This document shows positions 8,706 through 31,086 of a stretch of 64,000 nt of DNA, in pieces. The translations under genes were made by a program, and so were the position numbers. Numbering within the stretch: position 1 is the stretch's first letter; the number at the start of each line of letters is the position of its first letter. The notes under the pieces are model-generated. The model searched no databases. It had not been told where the DNA came from and saw nothing but the letters and a program-made list of their open reading frames with translations. This DNA is from a delta proteobacterium MLS_D (GTDB lineage Bacteria > Desulfobacterota > Syntrophia > Syntrophales > UBA2210). The DNA lies in assembly GCA_002030015.1 (NCBI GenBank), contig LQBH01000057.1, positions 35,470-99,469 of the forward strand, in the 5' to 3' direction.

Positions 8706-8708
8706 GAC

Positions 8709-15585: not shown

Positions 15586-15677
15586 TCATCGTTCGTTCAG
15601 GTATCGCGCGACATGCCGGTCGTCCCTGTCGCCGGTTCTCTGGAAACAGTTCAATCCAAAACGTCAACGACACGGGA

Positions 15678-15712
15678 GGTGTCATGCCGACCATCCGGCC
15701 CGGCATGACACC
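15678..15712 (+). terminator. Strong hairpin downstream of the NMO-family gene (12-bp perfect stem)
   Basis: GGTGTCATGCCG (15678-15689) pairs with CGGCATGACACC (15701-15712). No U-tract follows, so its function as a terminator is uncertain. Confidence 0.35.
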
Positions 15713-15808
15713 GTACCTGTTCCGAAAATGCAGTTCCCGTCCCCGCCGCTGTTGAGATATGAACGGTTCAATGCTATATGTTGTCACTGAGCCGGAGAGC
15801 GTGATTTC

Positions 15809-16564: not shown

Positions 16565-16574
16565 CCACTGTACC

Positions 16575-18554
16575 ATGATAACGCTTTCCAATCTTTCCAA
16601 GCGGTATGGGGAAAAGCTCCTCTTCGAACGATTTTCCTTTCGGATCAACGAAGGCTCCCGCATTGCCCTGCTGGGCGCCAACGGCGCCGGCAAGTCCACG
16701 CTGCTCAAAATCATCGCGGGATTGGTGGAGCCGGATTCGGGAACGGTACGCTGCGCCCGGACGGCGACGGTGGGGTATCTCCCCCAGGACGGGGTGTACC
16801 ACCGTGGCCTCACGCTCCTGGAAGAGGCCTGGACCGCCTTTGAAGGCATCCTGCGCCTTGAGGAAGAGATAACAGACCTGTCGGACCGAATCCGGCTGAC
16901 AACGGCCGAAGAAGGCCCTTCGTCGCCGTTTCTGCCGGCCCTGGTGGATGAACTGGGACGGGCGCAACACGATATGGAGCGTCGCGAAGGATACCGGAAG
17001 GAATCAAAAATAAAGGAAATTCTTTTCGGACTGGGATTCACGGAACGAGATCTCCACCGGGAAACGGAAGAATTCAGCGGCGGATGGCACATGCGCATCG
17101 AAATGGCAAAGCTGCTGCTGGCGGAACCGTCGGTCCTCCTGCTGGACGAGCCGACGAACCATCTCGACCTGGAATCCCTGGAATGGATTGAAGAGTACCT
17201 CCGGTCGTACCGCGGAGCGCTGCTCATCGTTTCTCACGACAGTCGCTTTCTCGACAACTTAGTGGACCAGGTCCTGGACGTGACCGGCAGCGCAATAACC
17301 TCATATAGCGGAAATTATTCATCATATCTGCTCCAGCGGGAGACCCGCAGAAAAATAAGCGAGGCCTCGCGCGAAAACCAGCGGAAACTGATCGAGCGCA
17401 CGAACCGTTTCGTGGAACGGTTCCGCTACAAAAACACCAAGGCGAGCCAGGTCCAGAGTCGACTGAAAATGCTGGAGAAATTGCAGCGTGTCGAACAGGA
17501 GGTCGAGCAGCGCGACATCGCCTTTTCCTTCCCCGATCCACCGCGATCCGGGCGGATAGTCATGGAACTGAAAGATCTGGCAAAATCCTATGGCGACGTA
17601 ACCGTGTTCGGCAGCCTGTCTCTGGTGGTCAACCGGGAAGACCGGATCGCCTGCATCGGCGTCAACGGTTCGGGAAAATCGACGCTGGCGCGCATCATCG
17701 CCGGGATCGAACCATTCAACCGGGGCAAACGCCTGCCGGGGCACAACGTGATCCCGGCCTACTACAGCCAGAACATGGCCGATGCCCTCCATCCCGACAA
17801 AACGGTCCTGGAAACACTGTCCGGGCTTGCTCCCGAACATTCTTCCGGCGCGTTGCGATCCCTGCTCGGGTCGTTTCTGTTTTCCGGCGATGATGTCTTC
17901 AAACCTGTCTCGGTTCTTTCGGGCGGAGAAAAAAGCAGGCTCGCCCTGGCGAAAATGCTGCTTGAACCGGCAAATTTTCTCATCCTGGACGAGCCGACGA
18001 ACCACCTGGACGCACGATCCAAGACCGTCCTGCAACAACGGCTCCGCGACTATCCGGGAACCCTGTTCATCGTGTCCCACGACCGGGACTTCCTCGCCCC
18101 CCTGGTGACGCGCGTCATTGCCTTGGGGCATGGAGGTGTGGACGAATATCCCGGTTCCCTGGAGGATTATCTGGAACGCCTGCACCGGCTGCGTGAACCG
18201 GAAAGAAACGACACAACGGGAAAACCGCCGGATACACCGGCGACGGCGGACCGTGACCGCAAGCGCCACGAGGCCAGGCGAAGGCAGGAACGATACCGGA
18301 AAACCAAGCCCCTTCGGGAATCTCTCGCCACCGTTGAACAGGCCATTCAAGACAAGGAGTCACGGAAAGCGGCAATCGAGGCGGCCTTCGCCGACCGGGA
18401 AACCTTTTCCGATGAACGGCTTATTCAATCATTGCACAAGGAACACGCCGAACTTGCCGCGAACCTCGAATCCCTTTACGATGAATGGACAAGGAACGAG
18501 GAAGCGCTGGAAACCGCCGAACGGGAATACGGGCCGCCCGATTCTTATTCATAG
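16575..18554 (+). CDS. ABC-F family ATPase (Uup/EttA-like, two ABC domains + charged C-terminal coiled coil)
   Basis: There are two Walker A motifs (GANGAGKST, GVNGSGKST) and two signatures (FSGGWHMR, LSGGEKSR), with no TM domain. I prefer the ATG at 16575 (MITLSNLSKRYG); the track ORF opens at 16521. Confidence 0.85.
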   Translation: MITLSNLSKRYGEKLLFERFSFRINEGSRIALLGANGAGKSTLLKIIAGLVEPDSGTVRCARTATVGYLPQDGVYHRGLTLLEEAWTAFEGILRLEEEITDLSDRIRLTTAEEGPSSPFLPALVDELGRAQHDMERREGYRKESKIKEILFGLGFTERDLHRETEEFSGGWHMRIEMAKLLLAEPSVLLLDEPTNHLDLESLEWIEEYLRSYRGALLIVSHDSRFLDNLVDQVLDVTGSAITSYSGNYSSYLLQRETRRKISEASRENQRKLIERTNRFVERFRYKNTKASQVQSRLKMLEKLQRVEQEVEQRDIAFSFPDPPRSGRIVMELKDLAKSYGDVTVFGSLSLVVNREDRIACIGVNGSGKSTLARIIAGIEPFNRGKRLPGHNVIPAYYSQNMADALHPDKTVLETLSGLAPEHSSGALRSLLGSFLFSGDDVFKPVSVLSGGEKSRLALAKMLLEPANFLILDEPTNHLDARSKTVLQQRLRDYPGTLFIVSHDRDFLAPLVTRVIALGHGGVDEYPGSLEDYLERLHRLREPERNDTTGKPPDTPATADRDRKRHEARRRQERYRKTKPLRESLATVEQAIQDKESRKAAIEAAFADRETFSDERLIQSLHKEHAELAANLESLYDEWTRNEEALETAEREYGPPDSYS

Positions 18555-20038
18555 ACCGGTTTCTCCCAGGATGTGAAAAAGGCGGGCCTCAGGGGATCCC
18601 ACCGGCCGACCAGGCGGTCGAAACAGGGATGCGAATAAGTTTCCTTAAAAATCCGATAATAATACAGCTCCTCCACCGATGAAAGGAGCGGGTTCCCCGG
18701 ACGCCGGTTGAATGCTTCAAGTTCCGCCTCGCTGACATTCTGCTCCGCCATGCGGCGCATCACCGACGATACGCCCGATCCCTGCGAGAAAAATCGTTTC
18801 GTCTGGTAGATGAGATGCTCGGGAAGACTATCTTCAAAGGCATCCCGAAGAATCCATTTCCCCACCTCATCGGCGCCGTGAATTTTATATTCCAGTGGAA
18901 TTTTCAGGGCAAAATCCATAACAGCCGCATCAAGAAAGGGCATCCGACTTTCTACGCCGTTGGCCGCGTTGAGACGGTCGAGTCGTTGTAATGCCGTGTT
19001 GTGGGCCACGTTGACGAGACTGTTCACGATAGCCGACCGTTCTTCGGGATTTTCAGCCACCCGGTACTGGCCGTCGTAGCCGGCAAAATATTCATCGGCG
19101 CCTTCGCCGGAAAGCACGCACGTCGCTTTGCCCCGAATAAAACGTCCCGCCAGGAAATTCGCTATGGCACCGTGAATACAGCTTTCTTCAAACATTTCCT
19201 GGTGGTAAATCGCCTCCCGAAGCACGCCGGCGATTTCCTGCTCGTCAAACATGTACACATGATGTTTCAGCCCGAGAAATTCCGTCACGTCGCGGGCAAG
19301 TGGAAGATCGGCGGCCCCTTCCATACTGACGGTGTAACATTCGATGTCCGGGTCTATCCGTGCGGCTATCGCGGTAATGATGCTGCTGTCCAGTCCGCCG
19401 CTGAGCAGGACGCCCGTTACCGCTCCGTCGCTCATGCGTTTTTCAACGGCCTTTTCCAGCAACGCCCGCACGACCCTTTTCGCCTGGTCGTAGGATTCAC
19501 ATTCCGGCGTGTCCACCGCCTTAGAGAAAAACCGGCGGAAACCTCCTTCCCTCGAATAGACATGTCCCGGCGGAAACTCCCGCACGTCGACGGATATGCC
19601 CGCGAAAGCCTTTGCCTCGGAAGCAAAGCACAGGTTTCCCGCCTTGTCATGCCCGTAGTAAAGCGGCTTGATACCCGCCTCGTCCCGGGCGAGTATCAGC
19701 GTGTCATCGTGTGCGACGGCACAAGCGAAATCACCATCGATGTGTCCGGCGAAATTGCGTCCGAACCGTTCGTACAGATCCAGCACCGCCTCCGCATCGG
19801 ACAGGTGACGAAGGTCTTTGTTATAAACCCGGCCGTCCATGACGACGACGGTTTCCCCCCGCATCGCACGATGGGTGCCCGGGGGGTTCTCACCACCCGC
19901 GTGTAGTTCCCGAATACCCAGGCGCACCGAACCTTGCTCACCTTTCCAGACGCCTCCGAGACCGCGGTGCCTGATCGCCTCAAGCAAACGGTCGACAGGA
20001 GAACCGTCATTCCCGATCATACCGGCAATTCCCGACAT
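18545..20038 (-). CDS. Asparagine synthase (AsnB)-like amidotransferase with Ser instead of the N-terminal Cys nucleophile
   Basis: 497 aa with a class-II GATase-like N-terminal domain and a synthetase domain carrying the PP-loop LSGGLDSS. The start is ATG TCG (MSGIAG), preceded by AAAGGAGG. The 3' end overlaps the convergent ABC-F gene by 10 nt. Confidence 0.8.
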   Translation of the reverse strand: MSGIAGMIGNDGSPVDRLLEAIRHRGLGGVWKGEQGSVRLGIRELHAGGENPPGTHRAMRGETVVVMDGRVYNKDLRHLSDAEAVLDLYERFGRNFAGHIDGDFACAVAHDDTLILARDEAGIKPLYYGHDKAGNLCFASEAKAFAGISVDVREFPPGHVYSREGGFRRFFSKAVDTPECESYDQAKRVVRALLEKAVEKRMSDGAVTGVLLSGGLDSSIITAIAARIDPDIECYTVSMEGAADLPLARDVTEFLGLKHHVYMFDEQEIAGVLREAIYHQEMFEESCIHGAIANFLAGRFIRGKATCVLSGEGADEYFAGYDGQYRVAENPEERSAIVNSLVNVAHNTALQRLDRLNAANGVESRMPFLDAAVMDFALKIPLEYKIHGADEVGKWILRDAFEDSLPEHLIYQTKRFFSQGSGVSSVMRRMAEQNVSEAELEAFNRRPGNPLLSSVEELYYYRIFKETYSHPCFDRLVGRWDPLRPAFFTSWEKPVYE

Positions 20039-20102: not shown

Positions 20103-20783
20103 TCATACCACGCTCATTGATTCCAGTATTCTAACCGCTTCAAAACCATCGGAGCAATACGCGTCCGCTCCGATTGCCTCAGCGTATTCCTTTGAAACGG
20201 CGGCGCCGCCTACGAAAATCTTTACCTGCTCGCGCAGGCCGGCGGCGTTGAGCGCTGTCACAACCTCGCCCATGACGAGCATGGTGGTGGTAAGCAACGC
20301 CGACAGTCCGAGGAACGCCGGCTTGTGTTCCCGGACATAGTCCACTATTTTGTCTGTGGGCACGTCGATGCCCAGGTCGACTACCTCGTATCCCGCCCCC
20401 TTTACGAGGATGGAAACAATGTTTTTCCCGATATCGTGTATATCCCCTTTCACGGTGGCGATAGCAAAGGTTCCCTTCGGCTTGACGTCGGTCCCGGCCA
20501 GAAGCGGTTTCAAAATGTCCATGGCCTCGCTCACGGCTTCGGCCGACGCCAGCATGTCGGGAACGTAGTACTCACCGGCGTTGAATTTCTCCCCCACGAT
20601 TTCCATACCTGCCGTCAGCCCACCCGTAATGATGTCCTGAGGCGGTATGTGTTCGTCAATCGCCCGCTGCGTCAATTCGACCACGCCTGGACCGGTAACG
20701 GTATCATCGACCCCTTCATCTTCACCGGTCATGCGGCCCTGGATGACATTTTCCTTGAGCATGGCAATAATATCGTCACTCAT
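20103..20783 (-). CDS. Methyltransferase-cognate corrinoid protein (B12-binding cap + Rossmann domain)
   Basis: 226 aa with the DxHxxG motif (GDIHDIGKN), SALLTT and GGA blocks typical of MtgC/MttC-type proteins. A GGGAG RBS is present. Confidence 0.85.
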   Translation of the reverse strand: MSDDIIAMLKENVIQGRMTGEDEGVDDTVTGPGVVELTQRAIDEHIPPQDIITGGLTAGMEIVGEKFNAGEYYVPDMLASAEAVSEAMDILKPLLAGTDVKPKGTFAIATVKGDIHDIGKNIVSILVKGAGYEVVDLGIDVPTDKIVDYVREHKPAFLGLSALLTTTMLVMGEVVTALNAAGLREQVKIFVGGAAVSKEYAEAIGADAYCSDGFEAVRILESMSVV

Positions 20784-20835
20784 GACAAACTCCCTTCTTT
20801 ATCAGCGGCGCCGGGATAATTGTTCCGCGCACCGG

Positions 20836-22377
20836 TTACGATTCACCATCCCGCTCCGAAGGATGAAGCCGCGGCAGCAATCCCGGAATATCCCGGAAAA
20901 CCCGCTCGGCGGTTTCGCGTTCAATGTGATTGACCGGACGGGACAGCAATTCTTCCATCCGCTGCTGCGCCTTGAAAAATACCTCGTCCTCATTCCCTTC
21001 ATAGGGATAGGGAGACGACAGCAATCCTTTTCGAAGAACCCTGCGGACATATCGAATGAACAGCTTGTGTGGTGAAGCGAGTACTTCCCGAATCTGGCGG
21101 GCCATGGTTTCCAGTTCATCTCCGTCCAGCCGGGGTCCCTGAAAGAAATATTTAATCATACTGAAATGAGTGTCGTCGATGACCGCCTGGAGCGGCGAGA
21201 ATGCGGCGTTGCAGTCCAGAAGCCCGTAGGCGCAGTGCAGATACTGGGGACCGCTGAGGGTGACCAGTATGTTTGAAAACAGCCGTTCAACCGTGGACTG
21301 CTGCCCCGGAAATGCCGGGTCGCAGACGCCGGAGGTGGAGTAGTTGGGAATACCGTAGTAACGCGCCAGCTGTGTGCAGTCGATCGTGTACTGACTCGTC
21401 TCGACGGCGCCGTATGAATCGGCGAGATTGTCCATGCGGGTTCTCACGGGGACCGTGCCGTATAGGATGGGCGTCCCCGGATTGACCAGCTGTCCCAGAA
21501 CGATGCCGGCAAGCACTTCGGCGTTGATCTGGGCGATGATGCCCGCTTCGTGAATAGGCGCGGTGGTTCCGGCCTGCGGGGATGACGACACTGCCACGGG
21601 TATGCCCCGACGGCAGATGTCGATAAACGATCCCGTCGTCTCATCGACAAACTGGAGCGGACTTTTCACCAGGCAGGTGATGAATGACAGGATCGGATTT
21701 TCTTGCAGTTTCTCGTCGTCACCGGCGATGATCGAGGCCATGGCCAGCACGGTATCGAGTTGATCCGGTTTTGTAAGACCAACCATCACATGTTTTGTCG
21801 TATTATCGAGGCTGGCGTAGACCTTGTTGACATCCTTGATGTCTTCGGTGATGTCGGCGTCCTGAATATTGACGTTGCGGATGAACCCGTCCAGCGTTTC
21901 CAGGTGTTCCGAGAGACGGGCCGACAGACACAAGTCGGCCAGCATGCCTCTGCGCGGTTTGAATTCGGCGACCCTGATTTCCTTCACCGGATCGGACTTT
22001 TTCACGTAGATGGGAAATTCAGCGTCGACCCAGGTATTCGCCTCGGAACCGGTCACGAAATACACCCGCGGTTCCCTTCCGTCCATTACCAAGGCGTTTT
22101 CGGAGTTCCTGGCCCCGAGCGTAATAACGGCGGGAGCCGACTGCAGACCCCGCTCGACAACTCCCGGTGGAATTTTCACGGTCCGGTAAGGCGGGGGACC
22201 CTGCATGAGGACCGAAACGTCGGCGCCGGCTTCGGCGAAAATCGACGCCGCCTCGTCGTTATAACAGACAAGACCGGGGTCGCTCAGAATGGCCAGCGAC
22301 GCCCGGTGAATATCGTCGATCTGCTTCCGTGACAGACGTTCCAACGGCGCCGGTATCAGCAGTCCCTGTCGCGGCAT
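20836..22377 (-). CDS. MttB-superfamily methyltransferase, non-pyrrolysine type (paralog 1, 513 aa)
   Basis: The N-terminus (LSRKQIDDIHRASLAILSDPGL) and the RRGIPV and NPGTPILYG blocks are typical of the family. The ORF is uninterrupted with no in-frame TAG. A GGGAGG RBS is present. Confidence 0.85.
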   Translation of the reverse strand: MPRQGLLIPAPLERLSRKQIDDIHRASLAILSDPGLVCYNDEAASIFAEAGADVSVLMQGPPPYRTVKIPPGVVERGLQSAPAVITLGARNSENALVMDGREPRVYFVTGSEANTWVDAEFPIYVKKSDPVKEIRVAEFKPRRGMLADLCLSARLSEHLETLDGFIRNVNIQDADITEDIKDVNKVYASLDNTTKHVMVGLTKPDQLDTVLAMASIIAGDDEKLQENPILSFITCLVKSPLQFVDETTGSFIDICRRGIPVAVSSSPQAGTTAPIHEAGIIAQINAEVLAGIVLGQLVNPGTPILYGTVPVRTRMDNLADSYGAVETSQYTIDCTQLARYYGIPNYSTSGVCDPAFPGQQSTVERLFSNILVTLSGPQYLHCAYGLLDCNAAFSPLQAVIDDTHFSMIKYFFQGPRLDGDELETMARQIREVLASPHKLFIRYVRRVLRKGLLSSPYPYEGNEDEVFFKAQQRMEELLSRPVNHIERETAERVFRDIPGLLPRLHPSERDGES

Positions 22378-22405
22378 AGTGCTTTTCCTCCCTGTTTTCA
22401 GTCGT

Positions 22406-23203
22406 TTATTGCACCAGTTCTCCCCTGCGATAGGACCTGATGAAGCGTTTACAGCGACTATCCCGGCCGGTCAGGAGATCGGCCGTGGCGACAAGCGTCA
22501 TCAGCCGCTTGTCCAGGGGATTGAGAATCGCGGCGTCAAGTCCGGCCGCGGCAGCCATCAGCAGAAAAGCCCGGTTCACAATGCCCCGTGCCGGCAGCCC
22601 GTAAGAAATATTACTGAGTCCCATGACCGTTCCGGCCGCGGGATAACGCTTTTGCAGGGCCTCGATTGTTTTCAGAGTTACCCCCGCCTGGATCGAATCC
22701 ACCGAAACGGGCAGTACCAGGGGATCGAAGAATATCCGTTCTTCCGCTATGCCATGATCCGCGAGGGCCTTGACGATAACGTCCGCGGCCCGGACGCGCT
22801 CTTCAACCGTCCGCGGGATGCCGCCTTCGTCCATAACGAGAGCGATGACACAGGCGTCATTGCGGGCCGCGAGAGAACCCACCATCTTCAGTCGATCGGG
22901 TTCTGCGTTCACGGAATTTATCATCACTCTGTCGCCGCGGTACACTTCGAGCCCCGCCCGGAGCACTGACGGATCATCGCTGTCCAGGCACAGCGGTTTA
23001 TTCGTGGCCGACCGGACCACGTCCACGAGCCAGCGCATGGTGGCCGCGCCTTCTCCTCCTTCTCCCGCGTTGACGTCAATGTAATCCGCCCCGGCGGTGT
23101 CCTGTTTTCCGGCCAGGTCCGCAAGAAAAGACTCGTCCCTGCGGCCGATCGCGTCGCGGACCGAGGGGATGGAAGCATTGATTTTTTCACCGATTATGAT
23201 CAT
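22406..23203 (-). CDS. Methyltetrahydrofolate:corrinoid methyltransferase (pterin-binding, MtgA/AcsE-like)
   Basis: 265 aa beginning MIIIGEKINASIPSVRDAI, with ADYIDVNAG, INSVN and GLSNISYGLP blocks of the pterin-binding (DHPS-like) fold. A strong AAGGAG RBS is present. Confidence 0.8.
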   Translation of the reverse strand: MIIIGEKINASIPSVRDAIGRRDESFLADLAGKQDTAGADYIDVNAGEGGEGAATMRWLVDVVRSATNKPLCLDSDDPSVLRAGLEVYRGDRVMINSVNAEPDRLKMVGSLAARNDACVIALVMDEGGIPRTVEERVRAADVIVKALADHGIAEERIFFDPLVLPVSVDSIQAGVTLKTIEALQKRYPAAGTVMGLSNISYGLPARGIVNRAFLLMAAAAGLDAAILNPLDKRLMTLVATADLLTGRDSRCKRFIRSYRRGELVQ

Positions 23204-23221
23204 ACCGGTCTCCTTTCTCCG

Positions 23222-24667
23222 CTACAGTGATCTCAAGCCGGGAATTTCATCCATGATCCGACGCGCCGCAGCGTCGGGGATATACCGCTTCGGTTGTTCG
23301 GCCAGGAATGCCCTGACCGTGTCGGCCGCGCGTGCCCGTGCGTCCTTCGATCCTCGCTGTTCCCATTGTCTGCGATCATCCCGGTCGCTCAATCCGGGCA
23401 GAAACCGTTCATTGCGCATGAGCTTCCGTGTATGCGGCTGCGCCACGTAATGGCCGCCGGGACCGACATTTTTTATAATATCGAAGGCAAGTGACTCATC
23501 GTCCACTCGAATGCCCTCCACGGCACGCATGACCATGCCGATGATATCGTTATCGATGACGAGCTTTTCGTACGACGCGGTCAGGCAGAACTCGATGAAC
23601 CCCGCGGCGTCGTGAATGAAATTACCGCCCGCGAGAGCCACCATGACGGAACTCACCGCTGATTCATAGCCCGCTTGCGCGTCCGCGGTCTTAGCGTCGG
23701 TCATGCCCGCCGTGGCATAGTAGGGAAGCCGGTAGTGCTGGGCCATCTGTGCCGCCGCGGCATTGAGAAGTCCCATTTCAACGGCGCCCGAAAGATATTT
23801 CATGTCACGCAGGTCCGCGACCGACGCGACGCTGCCGTAGATCACGGGCGTTCCGGGATTCGCCAGCTGGGCAAGCATGACCCCGGCCAGGGTGTCGACG
23901 TTCTGTATGACAAGCGTTCCGGCCAGCGTTATCGGTGCCGTGGCTCCGCTGAGCGGCTCGGAGGGAACCACGACAGGAATGCCCCGCCGGGCGATCTCGA
24001 TGGTGAGACCCGAATAGTGCATGTCCAGTCTGAGGGGACTGACAACGCAGGCTACCATAGAAATGAAAGGCCTCTCCCGCAACGGTTCGGCGCCGCCGGC
24101 GACATGTTCGGCCATGCGGATCACCCGTTCCACGCCTTCAAACGTATACACTCCTCCCATGACATGTTTCCGGGTATACGTGAGGGCCGCGTAAAAACGA
24201 TTGGCGTCCACCTCCTCGGCGGCAAGATCGTTCGGGTACACGTTCAGCATGTAAAAATCGATGTGTTCCAGCCTGTCCACGAGCCGGGCCATAGACACCA
24301 CGTCTTCAAGGACGGACGGTCTCGGTCGGTCGGCTCCCGGCTCAAGCACGTTGAGCGCCGTACCTCCCGTACCCAGGTACACATTCCGCCCGCCGACGTG
24401 ACAATCGAGATCGCCGCTTTCATCCCTGCCGCAGAGACTGACGACGGACGGAGCGCCGCCGATGAGTCGTTCCGCCAGGGAGGCCGGTATTTTCAGAACA
24501 TGACCGTCGGCCGCCCGGGCACCGGCGTCGAGAAAGAGCCTCCTCGCCTCCGGAAGCCGAACCTCGATGCCCACTTCTTCAAAAACGCGGAGGGACGTTT
24601 CATGGATTCGCGACACGGCATCGTCAGACAGCGGTCTGTAGGACCCCCCTTCGCGTGTTTCCTTCAT
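23222..24667 (-). CDS. MttB-superfamily methyltransferase, non-pyrrolysine type (paralog 2, 481 aa)
   Basis: The LSDDAVSRIHETSLRVFEEVGI N-terminus and the RRGIPV and NPGTPVIYG blocks are present. The ORF is uninterrupted. Its ATG overlaps the metF stop (ATGA at 24664-24667). Confidence 0.85.
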   Translation of the reverse strand: MKETREGGSYRPLSDDAVSRIHETSLRVFEEVGIEVRLPEARRLFLDAGARAADGHVLKIPASLAERLIGGAPSVVSLCGRDESGDLDCHVGGRNVYLGTGGTALNVLEPGADRPRPSVLEDVVSMARLVDRLEHIDFYMLNVYPNDLAAEEVDANRFYAALTYTRKHVMGGVYTFEGVERVIRMAEHVAGGAEPLRERPFISMVACVVSPLRLDMHYSGLTIEIARRGIPVVVPSEPLSGATAPITLAGTLVIQNVDTLAGVMLAQLANPGTPVIYGSVASVADLRDMKYLSGAVEMGLLNAAAAQMAQHYRLPYYATAGMTDAKTADAQAGYESAVSSVMVALAGGNFIHDAAGFIEFCLTASYEKLVIDNDIIGMVMRAVEGIRVDDESLAFDIIKNVGPGGHYVAQPHTRKLMRNERFLPGLSDRDDRRQWEQRGSKDARARAADTVRAFLAEQPKRYIPDAAARRIMDEIPGLRSL

Positions 24668-25545
24668 ATGTTATTTCTCCCGGGCAGTGATATGCCGTTC
24701 AGAATTTCCTCCACGGGTCCGCTCCGGTTCATACTGTAGAAATGAAGTCCCGGGACACCGTGTTGCAAAAGGTCCTCGGTCTGCCGAACGGCATAGTCGA
24801 TACCCCGGCGTGCCACCTCGCCGTCGTCGTCCCGCACGGGATCTATCCGTTCACGCAGTTCCCGGGGCAGTGTCGCGCCGCAGAGAGATACGATTTTGCT
24901 TATCTGGCGATAGTTTATCACGGGGAAAATACCGGGAACGAGCGGCACGTTCACACCCGCCCTGTCAGCCGCGTCACGGAACCGGTAAAAATCCTCGTTG
25001 CGGTAAAACAGCTGTGTTATGACGAAATCGGAACCAGCGTCAATCTTGCGTTTCAGGTGATCGATATCCGCCTCAAAACTCTCAGCTTCCTGATGTCCCT
25101 CGGGATATCCCGCAACGCCCACGCAGAACCAGTTGTAGGAACGAATGAAATCAACCAGCTCACAGGCGTAGCCGAACCCGTCCTTCGGCCTGGTAAAGGA
25201 TGTTTCTCCCGCCGGCGGATCTCCCCGAAGCGCAAGGATGTTCTGCACGCCCTTGTCCCGTAATTCCCGAAGAATACCGTCTATCTGTTCTCTGTCAGCG
25301 CCCACGCAGGTCAAGTGAGCCAGCACCTCCACGGAAGCTTTTTCCTTGAGAAGCGAGGCTATCTCGACGGACATGTCACGCGTACCGCCCCCGGCGCCAT
25401 ACGTCACGGATATGAAGTGCGGATCGAGCTCCGCAAGGCGGTCTATCACGGGAACGAGACGGTCGATGGTACCGTCCCTGACGGGCGGAAAAACCTCAAA
25501 GGAAAGCACGCATGGGTCTGTTGCAAAGAAATCCCTAATTTTCAC
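24664..25545 (-). CDS. metF: 5,10-methylenetetrahydrofolate reductase
   Basis: MetF-like blocks include SFEVFPP, ISVTYGAGG and a C-terminal HFYSMN. I prefer the GTG at 25545 (VKIRDFF), preceded by AAAGGAGA. The maximal ORF to 25695 would overlap the upstream gene by 160 nt. Confidence 0.85.
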   Translation of the reverse strand: MKIRDFFATDPCVLSFEVFPPVRDGTIDRLVPVIDRLAELDPHFISVTYGAGGGTRDMSVEIASLLKEKASVEVLAHLTCVGADREQIDGILRELRDKGVQNILALRGDPPAGETSFTRPKDGFGYACELVDFIRSYNWFCVGVAGYPEGHQEAESFEADIDHLKRKIDAGSDFVITQLFYRNEDFYRFRDAADRAGVNVPLVPGIFPVINYRQISKIVSLCGATLPRELRERIDPVRDDDGEVARRGIDYAVRQTEDLLQHGVPGLHFYSMNRSGPVEEILNGISLPGRNNI

Positions 25546-26356
25546 GGCCCGTCGTCTCCTTTCCCCCGGTACGGCGACCAGGGCCGTTACCTCGGAAAAG
25601 GTAGGACGGGATCGAACGCCGTTCGGGACAATGTCGTCGGTCGCACCGGGTGCAGGGATTCTTGAGGACGTGACGGGTCCTCCGGCTTCCGTCAAGAATG
25701 CCGAATATACCTGAAATGGATTTCCGCGGTCTCATAAGCAGTGACGGGCTCAGGGACACGCCGATACGCTTCGTGTCAACCAGTGAAAAGAGTTTCCTTT
25801 GTTCCGCCAGCGACCAGTCGCAGTAACCGGGACTGAAACGCATGGTTACTCCTCTGCCCTTCCTGCCGAAGCGTTCCGCCATTTCCCGGTGAAAGGCGGT
25901 AACCACCGCCTCGATCGCCAGTGAACCGACACGATCAAGCAGGTACACGCCGGACAGGCGCTGCTCCGATGTCAATCGCTCGATTTCACAGTCAAGCACA
26001 GGACCGATGGTGGCGACAAAACAAACGGCCTGCGGGCAATCTTCAAGCACCCAGGCCAGTTTACTGCTGGTCAAACTTACGCCGTTTTCAAGTCTCACCG
26101 TCGCACCATCGTCGCCTTCCACTGATCTGATGGTAAAACTGAGACGAGGATGAATCAGTTCATTGAACGGGTGGTCTCCCGCGTCAGCGCCCTCCCGCAG
26201 AATGCGCTGCAGGCGTCGACCGTGTCTTCCGCCGACGAGACGGGACCACTCACGCCGTTCACCGTCGTCAAGATCATCAAACGAATCAACGATGTTTTCG
26301 AAAGAAAACAGCTGCTCCATAACCATCACGCGTAACAGGGGGAATAAAGGTTTCAC
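25535..26356 (-). CDS. MetH activation (AdoMet-binding reactivation) domain-like protein
   Basis: The blocks RFSPGYCDWSLAEQRKLFSLVD and LMRPRKSISGIFGI resemble the methionine synthase C-terminal activation domain. The C-terminus has a CxxCxxxxC motif. The start is uncertain: GTG at 26356, or ATG at 26326 or 26320. Confidence 0.65.
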   Translation of the reverse strand: MKPLFPLLRVMVMEQLFSFENIVDSFDDLDDGERREWSRLVGGRHGRRLQRILREGADAGDHPFNELIHPRLSFTIRSVEGDDGATVRLENGVSLTSSKLAWVLEDCPQAVCFVATIGPVLDCEIERLTSEQRLSGVYLLDRVGSLAIEAVVTAFHREMAERFGRKGRGVTMRFSPGYCDWSLAEQRKLFSLVDTKRIGVSLSPSLLMRPRKSISGIFGILDGSRRTRHVLKNPCTRCDRRHCPERRSIPSYLFRGNGPGRRTGGKETTGREN

Positions 26357-26388
26357 GTATAATAATTATACCTGAAACCTATATCAGG
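26357..26388. promoter_or_regulatory. Two adjacent palindromes immediately upstream of the corrinoid operon (candidate MarR operator / promoter)
   Basis: GTATAAT-A-ATTATAC lies at 26357-26371 and CCTGA-N8-TCAGG at 26371-26388. On the minus strand, perfect TTGACA (26404-26399) and TATAAT (26370-26365) hexamers are present but 28 nt apart. Confidence 0.35.
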
Positions 26389-26631
26389 AAAAGCGCCTTG
26401 TCAAGAAAAGCCGGCTATCTTATTAATATAATGGCAGATTATCGTAAATGGTCGCACGCACGGGTGAAAGTGTCTCGGCCTGGCTGAATGGCTTAGCGAA
26501 TGTCTGTTGTGTGATGGCTCCGGGCAATGACTGCCCGTCCCCGGCGTGGTCACGGAAAGACCTGTCGGCTGACCCGAAAAAGGCGCAAGCGAGGCGCTCA
26601 CGCGGTGCCGGCGGGCGAAAACTGCGAAGGG

Positions 26632-27171
26632 TTACCAGATCGACATGACCGTGTCGTCCTGTTCGACCTGGGTTTCGATAACCTTGGTGTCCAGCATGGA
26701 TGTAAGAATTTTGAGAGTGCGGATTATGTGTTCGATCTGGGAGGGATCAAGCCGGTTGAGTCCGTCCACCATCTGCTGCTGGATAGGGGGTGGAGCGTTT
26801 CGTGCCAGGTGTCGGCCCTCAGGTGTCAACTCGATCGTGATAACGCGGCGATCGGGGGAAGTGCGGACCCTGTGGACAAAACCCTTTCGCTCCAACCGAT
26901 CCACGATTCCGGTTATGGTGCTTGATTTGACCATGACACGCCTCGCCAGCTGTGAATGCGGCAGGGGACCGTCACTGTCGAGAACGCGAAGGCAACTCAA
27001 CTGGGGCGCGCTTACGTTATGCTTCCTGTCAAGCTCTTTCGTGTAAAGATAGGTGGCCTGTACGAGACGCCGAATAAGACGAATGATCTCGTCTGTCGAA
27101 TCCCGGCGGTACTCTTCGTCCGGCGCCCCGTTTCCGGATGTAGAATAGAGGGAGTGCTGGCTCTGGTCCAT
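26632..27171 (-). CDS. MarR-family transcriptional regulator
   Basis: 179 aa with a winged-helix core (SAPQLSCLRVL..LPHSQLARRVMVKSSTITGIVDRLERKGFVHR). It is co-directional with and upstream of the corrinoid operon. Confidence 0.85.
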   Translation of the reverse strand: MDQSQHSLYSTSGNGAPDEEYRRDSTDEIIRLIRRLVQATYLYTKELDRKHNVSAPQLSCLRVLDSDGPLPHSQLARRVMVKSSTITGIVDRLERKGFVHRVRTSPDRRVITIELTPEGRHLARNAPPPIQQQMVDGLNRLDPSQIEHIIRTLKILTSMLDTKVIETQVEQDDTVMSIW

Positions 27172-27370: not shown

Positions 27371-28855
27371 TTATGGTTTTATCACAACGAAAAACCTGGC
27401 ATCCTGTCGCTTTATGAGCAGAAGCAAGCTCTTTGAAGCATCGGCCCTCGCGATGGCCTCCCGGTAGTCATCCATGGTTTCGATATGAATGTTGTTGACC
27501 GAAACGATGATATCCGCCGGTTGAATACCCGCCTCGTCGGCCCTGCTGCCTGGTTCTACTTCTGTCACAATCACACCGCCCGTGTCGGACAGGCCGAAGT
27601 GCAGGGCCATATCGGGGGTAATCGCCTGGACGGTCATACCGAACTGGTCTTCCTTTTTATCCTTGCGGACCATAGTTTCCGCGTCCGGCCGCTCCTTGAT
27701 GACAACTGAAAAGTGCTTCTCCGCTCCCTTGCGGACCACGCCGACGTCAACCTCATCGCCGACCGGTATCGATGCCACAACACGGAGCAACTCCTGAGTG
27801 TCTTTAACGGGCTTCCCGTCGATCGAAACAATGACGTCGCCGCTCATGATGCCCGCCTCGGCGGCGGGATCTCCCTCGAAAGCATGGGCGACCAGTACGC
27901 CGTTCTCGGCTTTCAACCCGAGGTTTTCGGCGATTTCTTTCGTCACGTCCTGGACGGATACGCCCAGCCAACCACGGGTGACCCGTCCCTCCTTTTTAAG
28001 GGCCGGAAGAATTTCCTTCGCCATATCGATCGGAATGGCGAAGCCGATGCCCTGACCCTGTGCCACGATGGCCGTGTTAATACCGACCACCTCCCCGGCC
28101 ATGTTAAACAATGGACCGCCGCTGTTTCCGGGATTAATGGAAGCATCGGTCTGAATAAAATTATCATAGGGACCGGCGCCGATAACTCGGCCCGTGGCAC
28201 TGACGATACCAGCGGTAACCGTTTGCGACAGGCCGAAGGGGTTTCCGATAGCCATGACCCATTCACCAACTCGGAGATCTGCTGATTTTCCCAGGGTCGC
28301 GGCGGGAAGTTCCTCATCCGCTTCTATCTTGAGAAGGGCGATGTCGGTGTTTTTATCGCTGCCCTTGACGGTGGCGATATATTCGTTTCCGTTTGAAAGG
28401 CGGACCGTGATTTCGTCGGCCCGTTCTATGACGTGATTATTCGTAAAAAGATAACCGTCCTTGCTGATGATGAAACCGGACCCCAGGCTGCGCTGCCGGT
28501 ATTCCCTGCCCGGCCGATCGCCGAAAAAGTGCCTGAAAAATTCGTCGCCACCGAAGAACCGTTCGAAGGGTGATCCCCGAAAAGGTGACCCGAAGTTATA
28601 CATGTCTCCTCCACTGACAACCTTTGTCGTACTGATATTCACGACACAGGGATTAACCTGTTCAGCGATTTCGGTAAAGGACGGAGGGACATTAAACGCG
28701 GCCGCCTCGGCAGCAACTGCTTTTGTTTCCCGCGCTTCGAGAGAGCCGGGAACGAAGCCGAACGATGCCAGCCCAGCAATGAGGGCTATCGCAAAGGCCA
28801 GAAAAACAGCGGCTCCCGGCATTATAGTTGTTCGTTTCTGTCGTGATGTCTTCAT
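27371..28855 (-). CDS. htrA: Periplasmic serine endoprotease, DegP/DegQ/HtrA family (protease domain + two PDZ domains)
   Basis: 494 aa with an N-terminal signal/anchor and the catalytic triad context (TNNHV, DIALLKI, GNSGGPL). Two PDZ-like regions are present. The RBS AAGGAGGAG lies 6 nt before the ATG. Confidence 0.9.
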   Translation of the reverse strand: MKTSRQKRTTIMPGAAVFLAFAIALIAGLASFGFVPGSLEARETKAVAAEAAAFNVPPSFTEIAEQVNPCVVNISTTKVVSGGDMYNFGSPFRGSPFERFFGGDEFFRHFFGDRPGREYRQRSLGSGFIISKDGYLFTNNHVIERADEITVRLSNGNEYIATVKGSDKNTDIALLKIEADEELPAATLGKSADLRVGEWVMAIGNPFGLSQTVTAGIVSATGRVIGAGPYDNFIQTDASINPGNSGGPLFNMAGEVVGINTAIVAQGQGIGFAIPIDMAKEILPALKKEGRVTRGWLGVSVQDVTKEIAENLGLKAENGVLVAHAFEGDPAAEAGIMSGDVIVSIDGKPVKDTQELLRVVASIPVGDEVDVGVVRKGAEKHFSVVIKERPDAETMVRKDKKEDQFGMTVQAITPDMALHFGLSDTGGVIVTEVEPGSRADEAGIQPADIIVSVNNIHIETMDDYREAIARADASKSLLLLIKRQDARFFVVIKP

Positions 28856-29003
28856 ATGTATCTCCTCCTTCGTCGTATCGTCCCATCAAACCTTTTATAT
28901 TCATTCCGCTTTCCGCCGATGCCGCGTTGTCTCTCCGGTCCGGCCGCCGAAGGCGCTCCGGACGGCGTAACGTTCCCCCGGCGTCGCCGACTGCTGTGAA
29001 AAG

Positions 29004-29020
29004 TTGCAATGGTTATGCCA
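29004..29020 (-). promoter_or_regulatory. Sigma-54 promoter (-24/-12) for htrA: TGGCATAACCATTGCAA
   Basis: The minus-strand sequence TGGCAT-N5-TTGCA differs from the consensus TGGCAC-N5-TTGCW at one position. It lies about 150 nt upstream of the htrA ATG and next to a sigma-54 activator gene. Confidence 0.6.
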
Positions 29021-29097
29021 ACCGTCCTTCCCCGGCATCCCGCCAGGCGTCATTCCGGGCGGCGCGGCCGGGTACAACCCGGGAAGGCGCAAAAAAC

Positions 29098-29114
29098 TGG
29101 ATACAATATATCCA
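29098..29114. promoter_or_regulatory. Candidate enhancer (UAS) dyad TGGATA-N5-TATCCA between the two sigma-54 promoters
   Basis: This perfect 6-bp-arm dyad lies about 80-95 bp from the minus-strand promoter and about 110-125 bp from the plus-strand promoter. Its core TACAATATA recurs at 29133-29141. Confidence 0.4.
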
Positions 29115-29221
29115 CTTATGGTATACGGGTGTGTACAATATAGCCGGTTCTAAGCCGGCGGCGACATTCCAGATAAACCGCGTGCCGTGCGGTCTCTGTC
29201 GTCCCGCCTATACCGGTTTCA

Positions 29222-29237
29222 TGGCATCGACTTTGCT
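29222..29237 (+). promoter_or_regulatory. Sigma-54 promoter (-24/-12) for the kinase/regulator operon: TGGCATCGACTTTGCT
   Basis: The TGGCAT-N5-TTGCT sequence has canonical spacing and lies about 100 nt upstream of the kinase start. It is a mirror image of the htrA promoter. Confidence 0.55.
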
Positions 29238-29334
29238 TGTTGTCATGCCTGAATGAAATTATTGTACCGCTGCCGCGTCGTAAAGGCAAATACCCGGTAT
29301 CACGGGTATAAACCATAGGGAGGACCCGACAATC

Positions 29335-31086
29335 GTGCAAAAAGGGATGCCGAGCAAAACCGGCGCCTGGATTATGATTTCCCCGTGGATCATAATCGGA
29401 ACGGTGCTCATACTGGTTCCCATCGTGATACTGATGGCTCTGTACAGTATCGAGCAGCAGCGGACGGCCATGACGAAGCTGCTCGCCGAAAAGGGCGCCG
29501 CCCTTATCCGCTCCGTTGAAGCCGGTGCACGGGCGGGGCGGTCCCAAGCGGCGATAGATCTGCCCAGCATTCAGGCGTTGGTCGCCGAAACGTCCCAGCA
29601 GCCGGACATCGTGTATCTGCTCGTCACCGACGTAAACGGCCGCATAATCGCGCACAACGATCCAGGTAAAATCGGACGGTATCACGGTCGAGAACTGGAC
29701 CTGCGGGAAATAGCGGCGTCTCAGGGCCTGTACTACCGCAGGCCTGAAGGCAAGGACCGTGACGATATCTTTGAGGTATTCCGTTTTTTTGCGCCTGCTT
29801 CCGGCCCAATAGCCGGAGCGCGGGAAGAAGCAATTCCAGACGACGTTTTTAGGGGAACGAGCTCGCAGCAACCGGCATATATGATCTTCGTGGGATTGAA
29901 CCGCGAGCCTGTCGCCTCGGCCCTGAAATCGGATACTCGAGTCACCGTTGTGATGGCATTAATACTGCTTCTCGTCGGAGTTCTGGGTGTTATCACGCTC
30001 CTCATCCTGCAGGGGTATCGACAGACCCGCGCAACCCTGTCCCGAATCAGGACTTTTTCCGAAAACCTGGTGGAACATATTCCCATCGGCATCATCGCGA
30101 CCGACGCCTCCGGCTCCATCACATCTTTCAACCGGGCCGCGGAATCGCTTTTACAGATTCCGGCTTCACAAGCGTTTGGTCGAAATACCCGAGAGGTGAT
30201 GCCCATGCAACTTACGAACTGTCTCGAAAGGCTGTCGGAAGAAAAAACGGTCATCGAAGATGAACTTTCATGGTCCCCGGCGAAAGACAGAATGGTTGAT
30301 CTCGACATCATCGCCACATCAATGGCGGAAAAGGGCGTCTTCATGGGTCATGTCGTTATCATTCGGGACCTCACGGAAGTCAAGCGTTTGCAGCATGAAA
30401 TCGACCGGAGCCGTCGGCTGGCCTCTGTCGGCCGGCTGGCGGCGGGCGTCGCTCACGAAATACGTAATCCACTGAGTACCATCAAGGGATTCGCCACCTA
30501 CTTCAGGGACCGGTACCCGGATGCGGAAGACCGGCGCACCGCCGAGGTCATGATCGAGGAAGTGGACCGTCTCAATAGAGTGGTGGGCCAGCTCCTGGAT
30601 TTTTCCAGGCCCGTCAGGTTGAGGAATTCAACCGTATCCATTACCGACCTTGTTCGGCGTTCACTTGACATGATCAAAAACGGGGCGGACGAACGAAACA
30701 TCGTCGTCGAAACCGATCTGCCCGTGGATAATCTTGAAATCAGCGCGGACTCGGACAGCCTGAGCCAGGCCTTGCTCAACCTGTATCTCAACGCCGTCGA
30801 AGCAATGCCCGACGGCGGCCGACTTCGGGTCGGCGCAGCGCGGGATGACGGCGGCATCGTGATAACCGTCGCCGACACGGGTTGGGGTATTACCAAAGAA
30901 GACATGTTAAAAATATTTGATCCCTATTTCACCACCAAGCCCTCGGGCACGGGACTGGGGCTTTCTATCGTGCACAACATAGTGGAAGCTCACGGAGGAA
31001 CCATGACTGTCGACAGCGAACCAGGAGGGGGAACGGTCGTACGTTTTACTATTCGCGAGACGTCGGGCGCGAGGTCGAAAACATGA
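29335..31086 (+). CDS. Sensor histidine kinase (2 TM, PAS, HisKA, HATPase_c; NtrB/ZraS/AtoS-like)
   Basis: 583 aa with the H-box HEIRNPLSTIKG, N-box LLNLYLNAVEA and G-boxes DTGWGI and GTGLGLSIV. The start is GTG at 29335 with GGGAGG 11 nt upstream. An alternative ATG lies at 29347. Confidence 0.85.
   Translation: MQKGMPSKTGAWIMISPWIIIGTVLILVPIVILMALYSIEQQRTAMTKLLAEKGAALIRSVEAGARAGRSQAAIDLPSIQALVAETSQQPDIVYLLVTDVNGRIIAHNDPGKIGRYHGRELDLREIAASQGLYYRRPEGKDRDDIFEVFRFFAPASGPIAGAREEAIPDDVFRGTSSQQPAYMIFVGLNREPVASALKSDTRVTVVMALILLLVGVLGVITLLILQGYRQTRATLSRIRTFSENLVEHIPIGIIATDASGSITSFNRAAESLLQIPASQAFGRNTREVMPMQLTNCLERLSEEKTVIEDELSWSPAKDRMVDLDIIATSMAEKGVFMGHVVIIRDLTEVKRLQHEIDRSRRLASVGRLAAGVAHEIRNPLSTIKGFATYFRDRYPDAEDRRTAEVMIEEVDRLNRVVGQLLDFSRPVRLRNSTVSITDLVRRSLDMIKNGADERNIVVETDLPVDNLEISADSDSLSQALLNLYLNAVEAMPDGGRLRVGAARDDGGIVITVADTGWGITKEDMLKIFDPYFTTKPSGTGLGLSIVHNIVEAHGGTMTVDSEPGGGTVVRFTIRETSGARSKT

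Follow-up and report, generated by a model that had tools for sequence, protein, structure and literature searches.

In the glycine betaine system of Desulfitobacterium hafniense, a pyrrolysine-free member of the MttB superfamily, MtgB, acts as substrate:corrinoid methyltransferase (methyltransferase 1, MT1) together with a corrinoid protein carrying a DxHxxG motif, MtgC, and a pterin-binding methyltransferase, MtgA (methyltransferase 2, MT2), which passes the methyl group to tetrahydrofolate (THF; structures 2QNE and 9YCE). An operon that is likewise equipped with non-pyrrolysine (non-Pyl) MT1s, a DxHxxG corrinoid protein and a pterin-binding MT2 is described here from delta proteobacterium MLS_D. 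It is located on the minus strand of a 64,000-nt stretch of contig LQBH01000057.1 (referred to as the window) and codes for two diverged MttB homologs of 481 and 513 amino acids (aa) and for a partner related to asparagine synthetase B (AsnB).

Several other described systems are close to this operon. In Methanosarcina barkeri, the methyl acceptor of the pyrrolysine-containing MttB/MttC system (7XCL-7XCN) is coenzyme M, whereas THF would take this place in the operon from the window. In Eubacterium limosum, MtpB, MtcB and MtyB (with MtqC/MtqA) and MthB (with MthC, MthA and MthK) are non-Pyl MT1s whose methyl groups go to a corrinoid protein and on to a THF methyltransferase. Phosphocholine is demethylated by the Mth system, in which an ATP-dependent accessory enzyme, the choline kinase MthK, derivatises the substrate before MthB acts on it. 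In strain DCMF ('Candidatus Formimonas warabiya'), a gene cluster induced by glycine betaine codes for several MttB-family methyltransferases I (MTIs), two corrinoid proteins and a single methyltransferase II (MTII); stepwise demethylation has been proposed for it, and its authors consider that the several MTI and corrinoid subunits might each be dedicated to either glycine betaine or dimethylglycine (PMC9768040). This cluster also has an ATP-dependent amide-handling enzyme (hydantoinase/oxoprolinase family). In Ruegeria pomeroyi, which has a split methionine synthase/MtgBCD system, separate MetH-type pterin and cobalamin modules occur with an MttB-family MT1, and a metF paralog is found beside the pterin module. 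Its product MetF2, encoded next to mtgD, has been proposed from proteomic induction to oxidise methyl-THF (PMC12478193).

By analogy, the operon from the window would work like the MtgBCA, MtqCA and MthBCAK systems, yet it differs from each described system. Compared to the Mtg system, it contains a second MT1 and, in addition, MetF and a partner related to AsnB; its repair protein resembles the S-adenosylmethionine (AdoMet)-dependent TM0269 rather than the RamA type. Compared to E. limosum, the accessory enzyme is an adenylating amide synthetase instead of a kinase, and a fixed MT1 pair does not occur there; the Mth system is nevertheless the best analogy for the AsnB-like gene. The DCMF cluster, so far described only by proteomics, comprises three MTIs together with BCCT transporters; neither an AsnB-like nor a MetH-activation-like gene has been reported for it. 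Ruegeria is aerobic, reactivates its corrinoid by RamA and DUF1638 proteins, has an MtgC of another lineage and MT1s which are presumed to be glycine betaine enzymes, and has neither an AsnB-like gene nor a fixed paralog pair. MttB-family proteins without an assigned substrate are labelled MtxB in the field, and we refer to the two homologs as MtxB-A (481-type) and MtxB-B (513-type). A literature search for paired MttB clades or for an association of AsnB with MttB retrieved no describing paper. A paper on mercury which mentions MttB contains a docking hypothesis with HgcA and is irrelevant to the cassette.

The operon and its conserved cassette

The main point of interest is an invariant gene cassette with an AsnB-like partner, which is a well-defined and widespread target although it is not categorically new. 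In the window, the cassette and its upstream region contain the following features.

26632-27171, minus strand: MarR-family regulator (PF01047, 58.9 bits), upstream of the operon and a separate transcription unit
26583-26603, minus strand: terminator-like hairpin and T-run after the marR stop (9-bp stem with 6 GC pairs, then CTTTTTC)
26359-26388, minus strand: promoter-like site (sigma-70-like, 9/12 positions at 26387-26359; TATAAT at 26370-26365)
25535-26326, minus strand: homolog of the MetH reactivation domain (PF02965, 27 bits), standalone and of the TM0269 type
24664-25545, minus strand: MetF, methylenetetrahydrofolate reductase (TIGR00676, 336 bits, cut-off 293.7; PF02219, 319 bits)
23222-24667, minus strand: 481-type MttB homolog, MtxB-A (PF06253, 361 bits)
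23605-23704, minus strand: stretch matching Rfam PYLIS_3 over its full length (47.9 bits, gathering score 38)
22406-23203, minus strand: pterin-binding methylcorrinoid:THF methyltransferase, MT2, MtgA/MtqA/MeTr-like (NF005719, 292 bits, cut-off 259; PF00809, 79 bits)
20836-22377, minus strand: 513-type MttB homolog, MtxB-B (PF06253, 197 bits, profile positions 30-423 of 500)
20103-20783, minus strand: corrinoid protein, CP-B orthologue (PF02607 and PF02310; DIHDIG motif within KGDIHDIGKN)
18545-20038, minus strand: AsnB-family amide synthetase, type A (PF00733, 208 bits; 497 aa)

Six of these genes, tightly packed from 26326 (or 26356, see below) down to 20103, had been listed in a preliminary description in the order reactivation-like protein, MetF, 481-aa MttB homolog, pterin-binding methyltransferase, 513-aa MttB homolog, and corrinoid protein. 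Open reading frames (ORFs) and Pfam/NCBIfam matches confirm this order and all coordinates, as well as the upstream marR gene and the ATGA overlap (24667-24664) between the metF stop and the start of the 481-type gene. The unit does not end at the corrinoid gene, as had been assumed, but runs to 18545, with the AsnB-like gene as its seventh co-directional member. The 64-nt spacer between these two genes is without a terminator-like site in a hairpin scan, and the AsnB-like gene has its own ribosome-binding site (RBS). As the 3' end of this gene overlaps a convergent ABC-F gene, the transcription unit ends there. The genes of the operon either overlap or are 9-64 nt apart, and Shine-Dalgarno-like motifs precede five genes of the six-gene set. 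On the coding strand, the scan detected only short, weak, intragenic hairpins (5-7 bp stems) within the operon, and a terminator-like site is present only after marR. MetF starts with GTG at 25545 (293 aa, RBS GGAAAGGAG), which overlaps the stop of the first gene by 11 nt and agrees with public gene calls; the longest metF ORF (24664-25695, 343 aa) is too long. For the first gene, the longest ORF starts with GTG at 26356, while public calls on identical contigs start with ATG at 26326 (263 aa).

The promoter-like site is overlapped by a palindrome, CCTGA-N8-TCAGG at 26388-26371, which we infer to be a candidate MarR operator. A marR gene also precedes the cassette in about nine Desulfobacterota-type loci, and the genes from the window probably form a chromosomal operon under MarR control. 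No Rfam riboswitch was found in the 275-nt leader (26250-26700 searched, E up to 1).

To follow the cassette across genomes, one genome per GTDB species was scanned with 513-type-specific patterns. Matches were obtained in 181 genomes, so that at least 181 species-level genomes carry the cassette. The 80 loci that were fetched are labelled Chloroflexota (58), Desulfobacterota (19), or otherwise (3). Gene neighbors were identified by tblastn with the proteins from the window, counting only loci with sufficient flanking sequence (84 loci overall); many of these are from related Dehalococcoidia, and the counts do not represent independent events. The corrinoid gene is found directly 3' of the 513-type gene in 76/77 loci and is followed by an AsnB-family gene in 64/64. 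The 481-type gene is upstream of the 513-type gene in 56/57 loci, and the activation-like protein is encoded in 47/52. MetF is encoded in only 6/47 loci. The region between the two MttB genes varies:

pterin methyltransferase: 22/57 loci
second corrinoid protein: 15/57 loci
both pterin methyltransferase and corrinoid protein: 10/57 loci
no gene: 10/57 loci

Overall, the pterin methyltransferase is thus encoded between the MttB genes in 32/57 loci and a second corrinoid protein in 25/57; in the latter, each of the MttB genes has a corrinoid gene on its 3' side. The assumption of a single corrinoid carrier for both MttB homologs, which had been made initially, therefore applies to the locus from the window but not to these 25 loci. 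MetF and the single corrinoid protein are features of the lineage-specific, Desulfobacterota-type version only.

Contigs identical to the window are present in JGI metagenomes 3300001533 and 3300077564 and in SRR2989655. Each MttB paralog has a large set of homologs with 63-89% sequence identity from metagenome-assembled genomes (MAGs) assigned to Syntrophales, other Desulfobacterota, and Dehalococcoidia/Chloroflexota, all of which are named merely 'trimethylamine methyltransferase family protein'. The same neighborhood was encountered on a 2.79-Mb contig, in a Dehalococcoidales MAG, in a Syntrophobacteraceae MAG, and in others. Across phyla, the two paralogs show similar ranges of sequence identity. 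The linkage of the cassette survives transfer between phyla and the complete turnover of the flanking genes.

A few loci are peculiar. On the 2.79-Mb contig (L005, 11293-14236), an IS110-family transposase interrupts the 513-type gene of an otherwise intact cassette, which may represent a natural knockout of one paralog. The cassette also occurs in MAGs labelled 'archaeon', Bacteriovoracaceae, and Phycisphaerae (L018, L019, and L082), due to either horizontal transfer or binning errors. Three loci labelled 'Deltaproteobacteria' (L020, L028, L036) have the Chloroflexota-type gene order.

The two MttB homologs

Both homologs score above the gathering score of the MttB superfamily model PF06253 (25 bits), and their matches to MtgB and MttB in the PDB range from E = 1e-76 to 1e-36. 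The 481-aa protein has 260 bits with D. hafniense MtgB and 257 bits with M. barkeri MttB; over a trimmed alignment, the sequence identity of the 481-type is 38% to MttB, its closest solved relative, and 32% to MtgB. The 513-aa protein has about 130 bits with both structures, and the 513-type is 26-27% identical to MttB or MtgB (26% for MtgB). The two proteins show about 30% sequence identity to each other over their full length and thus share more than the short blocks to which their similarity had been ascribed. TIGR02369, the equivalog model for true MttB, gives 438.5 bits for the 481-type and 259.9 bits for the 513-type, both below its cut-off of 525. In a neighbour-joining tree (200 bootstrap replicates, limited reference sampling), each family is monophyletic in 100% of the bootstraps, and neither joins MtgB (0/200 for a grouping with the 481-type); the 481-type groups with MttB in 19%. 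By these comparisons, the 481-type and the 513-type are two tight and separate clades. The 481-type appears as the non-Pyl lineage closest to true MttB. For the 513-type, a library clustered at 50% contains only three full-length representatives with 48-52% sequence identity, followed by proteins with at most 37%, and we regard it as a discrete orthologous group that forms an isolated clade.

The glycine betaine site of MtgB is formed by Y97, R312, H348, and F356, as established by mutagenesis and a ligand-bound structure, and R312 is reported to be conserved in MtgB, MtcB, MtpB, MtyB, and MthB (PMC13080624). The corresponding residues in 61 members of the 481-type and 82 members of the 513-type are as follows.

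MtgB Y97 column: G102 in the 481-type; S111, then E112, in the 513-type
MtgB R312 column: Y317 in the 481-type; Y346 in the 513-type
MtgB H348 column: D353 in the 481-type; C382 in the 513-type
MtgB F356 column: A or C in the 481-type (C in the protein from the window); N390 in the 513-type
MttB Pyl334 column: M322 in the 481-type; V351 in the 513-type
MttB Tyr364 column: H352 in the 481-type; H381 in the 513-type

Within each family, almost none of these residues varies. In the 481-type, G102-T103, Y317, M322, H352, D353, and E359 are invariant or nearly so; the invariant residues of the 513-type include S111, E112, Y346, V351, H381, C382, and N390. At the R312 column, both families have an invariant Tyr, as has Pyl-MttB, and the catalytic Tyr364 of MttB is replaced by an invariant His in both. 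The Gly110-Thr111 pair of MttB is kept in the 481-type only, which further shares with MttB the Glu of MLELG and the PYLIS_3 match discussed below. As all four residues of the MtgB site are replaced in both families, glycine betaine was rejected as a substrate bound in an MtgB-like way. Judged by their defining features, neither MT1 belongs to the MtgB or MttB families, and the expectation that the paralogs fall outside a clade of known specificity thus holds for these two references (tree and active-site residues). Membership in the MtpB, MtcB, MtyB, or MthB families appears to fail on the reported Arg, the sole feature compared; it is this published Arg which sets the E. limosum enzymes apart. 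Both homologs had been placed with the non-Pyl enzymes which demethylate quaternary amines. Their non-Pyl nature stands, but a likeness to the quaternary-amine enzymes at the substrate site is not supported, given the replaced MtgB site, the invariant Tyr in place of R312, and the closer relationship of the 481-type to MttB.

The 513-type has small insertions at residues 59-64, 120-125, and 134-139, a pocket rich in His and Cys, and a divergent C-terminus without a match to the Pfam MTTB profile past position 423 of 500. A Foldseek search with its AlphaFold2 model, which was built on a 23-sequence alignment, returned 7xcl, 2qne, and 4yyc as the only strong neighbors (template modelling score about 0.7; 0.64-0.69 for MtgB, which has the same TIM barrel). 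The model supports an MttB fold for the 513-type, no more than the fold. A zinc site made up of H381, C382, C352, and C389 was considered, but C352 and C389 have been lost independently (67 CC, 8 SC, 7 CG) and are thus not an obligatory ligand pair. A metal site in this pocket is retained as a speculative idea only; the AlphaFold2 confidence (pLDDT) is below 50 at residues 348-392.

Both MttB ORFs are uninterrupted and have no in-frame TAG. At the position of Pyl334, the 481-type has Met322, encoded by AUG. The PYLIS_3 match begins exactly at this codon, with the AUG aligned to the UAG of the model. Further 481-type genes that were tested gave such a match in 7/7 cases; the 513-type genes tested gave none. 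A functional pyrrolysine insertion element (PYLIS) or read-through with pyrrolysine was rejected, as an in-frame TAG is absent and the model includes only few base pairs, of which three are non-canonical in this gene. Because the PYLIS_3 consensus is itself MttB coding sequence, the match reflects homology at the nucleotide level and is not a signal for pyrrolysine. Automated annotation would wrongly flag a PYLIS element at 23605-23704.

The AsnB-like partner and the remaining components

The AsnB-like protein from the window has the N-terminus MSGIAG. Its glutaminase positions C1, R49, N74, and E76 read S, E, D, and R, and among 42 proteins of this type (type A), the replacements are invariant throughout (C1 to A or S, R49 to E, N74 to D, E76 to R). 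The protein stays below the cut-offs of the NCBIfam AsnB models (346 vs. 499 bits and 254 vs. 267 bits); its closest solved relative is E. coli AsnB (1CT9, 198 bits). Type A keeps E352, and the synthetase site with the pyrophosphatase (PP)-loop SGGLDS and with E348, D351, K429, and K449 is kept in all three subtypes which are associated with the cassette:

subtype A, as in the window: 40 loci alone, 2 with B2; glutaminase residues replaced
subtype B1: 9 loci alone, 5 with B2; Cys-less, similar to type A
subtype B2: 12 loci alone; canonical MCGIAGC; 584 bits vs. the AsnB equivalog cut-off of 499; usually followed by a metallo-beta-lactamase (MBL)-fold protein

Type A is further distinguished by changes at synthetase positions conserved in AsnB and its human homolog ASNS (R324 to H, K376 to L, and D384 to A, the latter being Asp-400 of the human enzyme). 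NCBI names it 'asparagine synthase-related protein' only. Its range of sequence identities tracks that of the MttB pair, and when homologs of type A itself were sampled from contigs outside the earlier set, the cassette was found alongside in 3/3 cases.

The MBL-fold protein (Lactamase_B_2, 282 aa, N-terminal CxCxxC) is encoded 3' of the AsnB-family gene in 19 loci, e.g., L007 (13752-14600), L072 (13811-14659), and L092 (6652-7500); the subtype is A in L092 and usually B2. Six loci code for an isochorismatase-family amidohydrolase (RutB/biuret-hydrolase-like), and the accessory genes share an 'amide' theme.

The activation-like protein, taken alone, is barely above the Pfam threshold of PF02965 (27 vs. 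25 bits). With a family profile, the best match is T. maritima TM0269 (PDB 1J6R, E = 5e-16), followed by MetH activation domains (MetH 8G3H, E = 0.004). RFSPGYCDW, the AdoMet-binding motif of MetH, is invariant in this family, which also has a conserved C-terminal motif, NPC-x2-C-x4-C-x2-RR. Four Cys are invariant: the one in PGYCDW and those of NPC-x2-C-x4-C (residues 223-237 in the protein from the window); the profile match to 1J6R (214 residues) stops before the C-terminal motif. This Cys motif may form an iron-sulfur or zinc site for electron input. An ATP-dependent activase of the RamA/RACo type was not found in the operon or among the window ORFs scanned.

The corrinoid protein combines a cap domain with a Rossmann B12 domain, contains the DxHxxG motif, and scores below the cut-offs of the MtgC-like and pyl_corrinoid models. 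Its median sequence identity is higher to the copies encoded downstream of the 513-type gene (67%) than to the upstream copies (59%), which identifies it as an orthologue of the former. No part of a three-component corrinoid system is missing, and curated thresholds are passed where such exist. The initial view is supported in that this is a corrinoid operon in which two diverged non-Pyl paralogs of MttB are encoded together with MetF, a methyl-THF methyltransferase, and a corrinoid protein.

Proposed pathway, alternatives, and genomic context

We propose that the operon specifies a cobalamin-dependent pathway by which a single small methylated onium or amine compound is demethylated by two MT1s and its methyl groups are transferred into THF, a proposal to which we assign an even chance. 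While the sequences establish which genes are present, their families, their residue patterns, and their conserved linkage, it is by inference that we arrive at the direction in which methyl groups flow, the order of the MT1 reactions, the kind of substrate, and the part played by the AsnB-like enzyme. The 481-type and 513-type proteins would be the two MT1s of this pathway, most likely catalyzing successive demethylations, with each of them methylating the Co(I) corrinoid. The pterin-binding MT2 would hand the methyl group to THF, and MetF would oxidise methyl-THF to methylene-THF for further oxidation or for assimilation. The TM0269-like protein would repair the oxidised Co(II) corrinoid by AdoMet-dependent reductive methylation. 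Finally, the AsnB-like enzyme, its glutaminase being dead, would use ATP to adenylate a carboxylate of the substrate, of an intermediate, or of the product, which is then converted to an amide. This last step is probable only by analogy to MthK, which makes phosphocholine for MthB, and is the weakest link of the model.

A single pathway is favored by the near-obligatory co-occurrence of the paralogs, by the 25/57 loci in which a corrinoid gene follows each MttB gene, and by the precedent of the DCMF cluster. Stepwise methylamine demethylation is the role of the MttB/C, MtbB/C, and MtmB/C arrangement, which the pairing of MttB homologs and corrinoid proteins resembles. Of the two possibilities offered by the preliminary description, successive demethylations are thereby preferred over unrelated substrates. 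The proposed routing of methyl groups through MetF has a precedent for its oxidative direction in the Ruegeria MetF2, but MetF is rarely part of the cassette.

As stated in the preliminary description, the substrates cannot be read from the sequence, but a few clues can be. Genes for ProV (with CBS domains), ProW, and ProX directly follow the cassette in the Chloroflexota loci L042 (10797-14200) and L055 (about 6900-10700), ProX with 417 bits vs. an NCBIfam equivalog cut-off of 215, and OsmF-like OpuAC transporters are encoded beside the cassette in L030, L032, and L035. These betaine-type transporters point to a substrate which resembles a compatible solute, and the adjacency of ProX, even if restricted to few loci, keeps betaine-like compounds as the leading substrate class. 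The absence of the Arg, the pockets which are either acidic or rich in His and Cys, and the kinship between the 481-type and MttB suggest a different type of substrate. The substrate may carry no free carboxylate at the time of demethylation, or may be a tertiary or secondary amine for which acid catalysis is needed. It is most likely betaine-like or methylamine-like, but not glycine betaine as bound by MtgB.

Several observations weigh against our proposal. The Arg with which MtgB binds the carboxylate and the aromatic pair of that enzyme are missing from both MT1s, and the acidic pocket of the 481-type (D353, E359) is poorly suited to a carboxylate betaine. Among the ORFs scanned in the window, no transporter was found near the operon, and transporters adjoin the cassette in only about 5/84 loci. 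The pterin-binding MT2 is missing from the cassette in 25/57 loci and MetF in 41/47, so the link to THF is not universal. An ATP-consuming amide synthetase is hard to rationalise in the catabolism of energy-limited anaerobes. Finally, 12 loci have only a canonical, glutamine-dependent AsnB by the NCBIfam rule (584 vs. 499), and the accessory reaction might simply be asparagine synthesis.

Other explanations account for part of the data. The paralogs could form an obligate heteromeric MT1 for a single substrate and a single demethylation step, in which one subunit is catalytic while the other completes the active-site rim of its partner and docks the corrinoid protein. Their co-occurrence in 56/57 loci fits such a heteromer, as does the single corrinoid protein for two MT1s in the Desulfobacterota version. 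Moreover, the C-terminal extension of MtgB and MttB builds part of the cavity of the partner subunit, MttC touches both subunits of the dimer, and the unmatched C-terminus of the 513-type (past Pfam position 423/500) suggests a remodelled interface. We nevertheless consider a heteromer unlikely, since each family keeps its own set of invariant pocket residues, as expected of two active enzymes, and since the 25/57 loci with a corrinoid gene after each paralog are more compatible with two pairs of MT1 and corrinoid protein. That two independent MT1s with unrelated substrates share the downstream machinery is, in our view, slightly less probable still. The low sequence identity of the paralogs (about 30%) and their very different pockets would be explained, and E. 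limosum serves several MT1s of differing specificity with one MtqC/MtqA pair. However, a linkage in 56/57 loci from two phyla and with the same gene order is not expected for unrelated specificities; the E. limosum MT1 genes for different substrates are not known to form an invariant pair. An anabolic role in the reverse direction is the least probable of the explanations considered here. The operon might supply methyl groups to methionine synthesis via shared corrinoid and reactivation modules, similar to the split MetH/MtgBCD of Ruegeria, or methyl groups might pass from methyl-THF, formed by MetF, via the corrinoid to the nitrogen of an osmolyte precursor of the amide type which the AsnB-like enzyme would provide. 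Of the MetH modules, only the homocysteine domain is missing (pterin, cap and B12, and activation modules are there), the usual physiological direction of MetF is towards methyl-THF, and AsnB homologs are known to make carboxamide osmolytes such as NAGGN (N-acetylglutaminylglutamine amide; NCBIfam TIGR03104). In L090, a MetH without an activation domain is encoded 5 kb downstream of the cassette (14215-16635). Against a reverse role, the cassette has no gene for a homocysteine-binding protein (PF02574), an amine nitrogen is a thermodynamically unfavourable acceptor for the methyl group of methyl-THF when compared to transfer in the opposite direction, all characterised MttB-family enzymes named in the cited papers donate methyl groups to Co(I), and betaine uptake transporters beside some cassettes point to consumption.

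The AsnB-like gene itself permits two further readings, which we consider about equally improbable, on a par with that of two unrelated substrates. It may code for a housekeeping, ammonia-dependent asparagine synthetase which is adjacent to the cassette by descent or co-transfer. E. coli AsnB retains ammonia-dependent activity when Cys1 is mutated, subtype B2 passes the NCBIfam AsnB equivalog threshold, and many Dehalococcoidia loci are related by descent, so that 64/64 does not stand for 64 independent events. On the other hand, type A directly follows the corrinoid gene in both phyla even though all other flanks differ, and its identity range runs in parallel with that of the MttB pair. The replaced glutaminase residues E49, D74, and R76 are themselves invariant and thus under selection rather than decaying; the changes D384 to A, K376 to L, and R324 to H affect conserved synthetase positions, and the NCBI name falls short of asparagine synthetase. 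Conversely, the AsnB-like enzyme, whose former glutaminase domain is remodelled yet strictly conserved, could use ATP to conjugate or amidate the methylated substrate and thus make an activated species for demethylation by the two Pyl-free MttB homologs; it might, for instance, capture free methylamine on a carboxylate. If so, the cassette would represent a pyrrolysine-independent, ATP-primed bacterial route for demethylating amines which are not permanently quaternary, or for a new class of betaines, and this route would be widespread in subsurface Dehalococcoidia and Syntrophales.

The cassette is found mostly in Dehalococcoidia and Syntrophales-like Desulfobacterota of anoxic sediments, where methylated osmolytes are a major pool of carbon, nitrogen, and methane precursors. 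The operon defines two co-travelling MtxB clades which do not have the substrate-binding logic of the characterised quaternary-amine enzymes, which include the nearest non-Pyl relatives of genuine MttB, and which are linked with an AsnB-like enzyme that depends on ATP and with a corrinoid repair protein of the AdoMet type. Knowing the substrate would extend anaerobic methylotrophy by a new reaction and could explain how, in the absence of pyrrolysine, amines become activated to methylate cobalamin. Annotations would be corrected as well, as these genes are routinely mislabelled as trimethylamine methyltransferase, asparagine synthase, and PYLIS element.

Neither a betaine transporter nor additional one-carbon genes were found in the window, where the operon is surrounded by housekeeping genes and the replication origin region. 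The latter (39603-49811) carries rsmG, parA, parB, dnaA, dnaN, gyrB, and gyrA; it includes the minimum of the cumulative GC skew, and the GC content dips at 42-44 kb (local GC 0.47). The operon is about 16-24 kb from dnaA, with the same orientation as replication. Among the ORFs scanned in the window, pyl genes were not seen. An L-seryl-tRNA selenium transferase, SelA, is encoded at 1874-3292 (minus strand, 491 bits), and the organism thus encodes selenocysteine.

Upstream of marR (27371-32432) are genes for an HtrA-type PDZ protease, an sCache/PAS histidine kinase, and a sigma-54-dependent response regulator, which are not kept beside the cassette elsewhere. An amidase (PF01425, 369 bits) is encoded at 12942-14531 and an NMO/FMN-dependent oxidoreductase at 14485-15585, both on the plus strand opposite to the operon and 4-5 kb past the AsnB-like gene. 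Both recur in the identical contigs (L001-L003), with no link to the operon established; the related locus L091 shares only the adjoining genes for the ABC-F protein and the acyltransferase. The MetH from L090 has homocysteine, pterin, and B12 domains, and the TM0269-like protein of the cassette may also serve methionine synthase.

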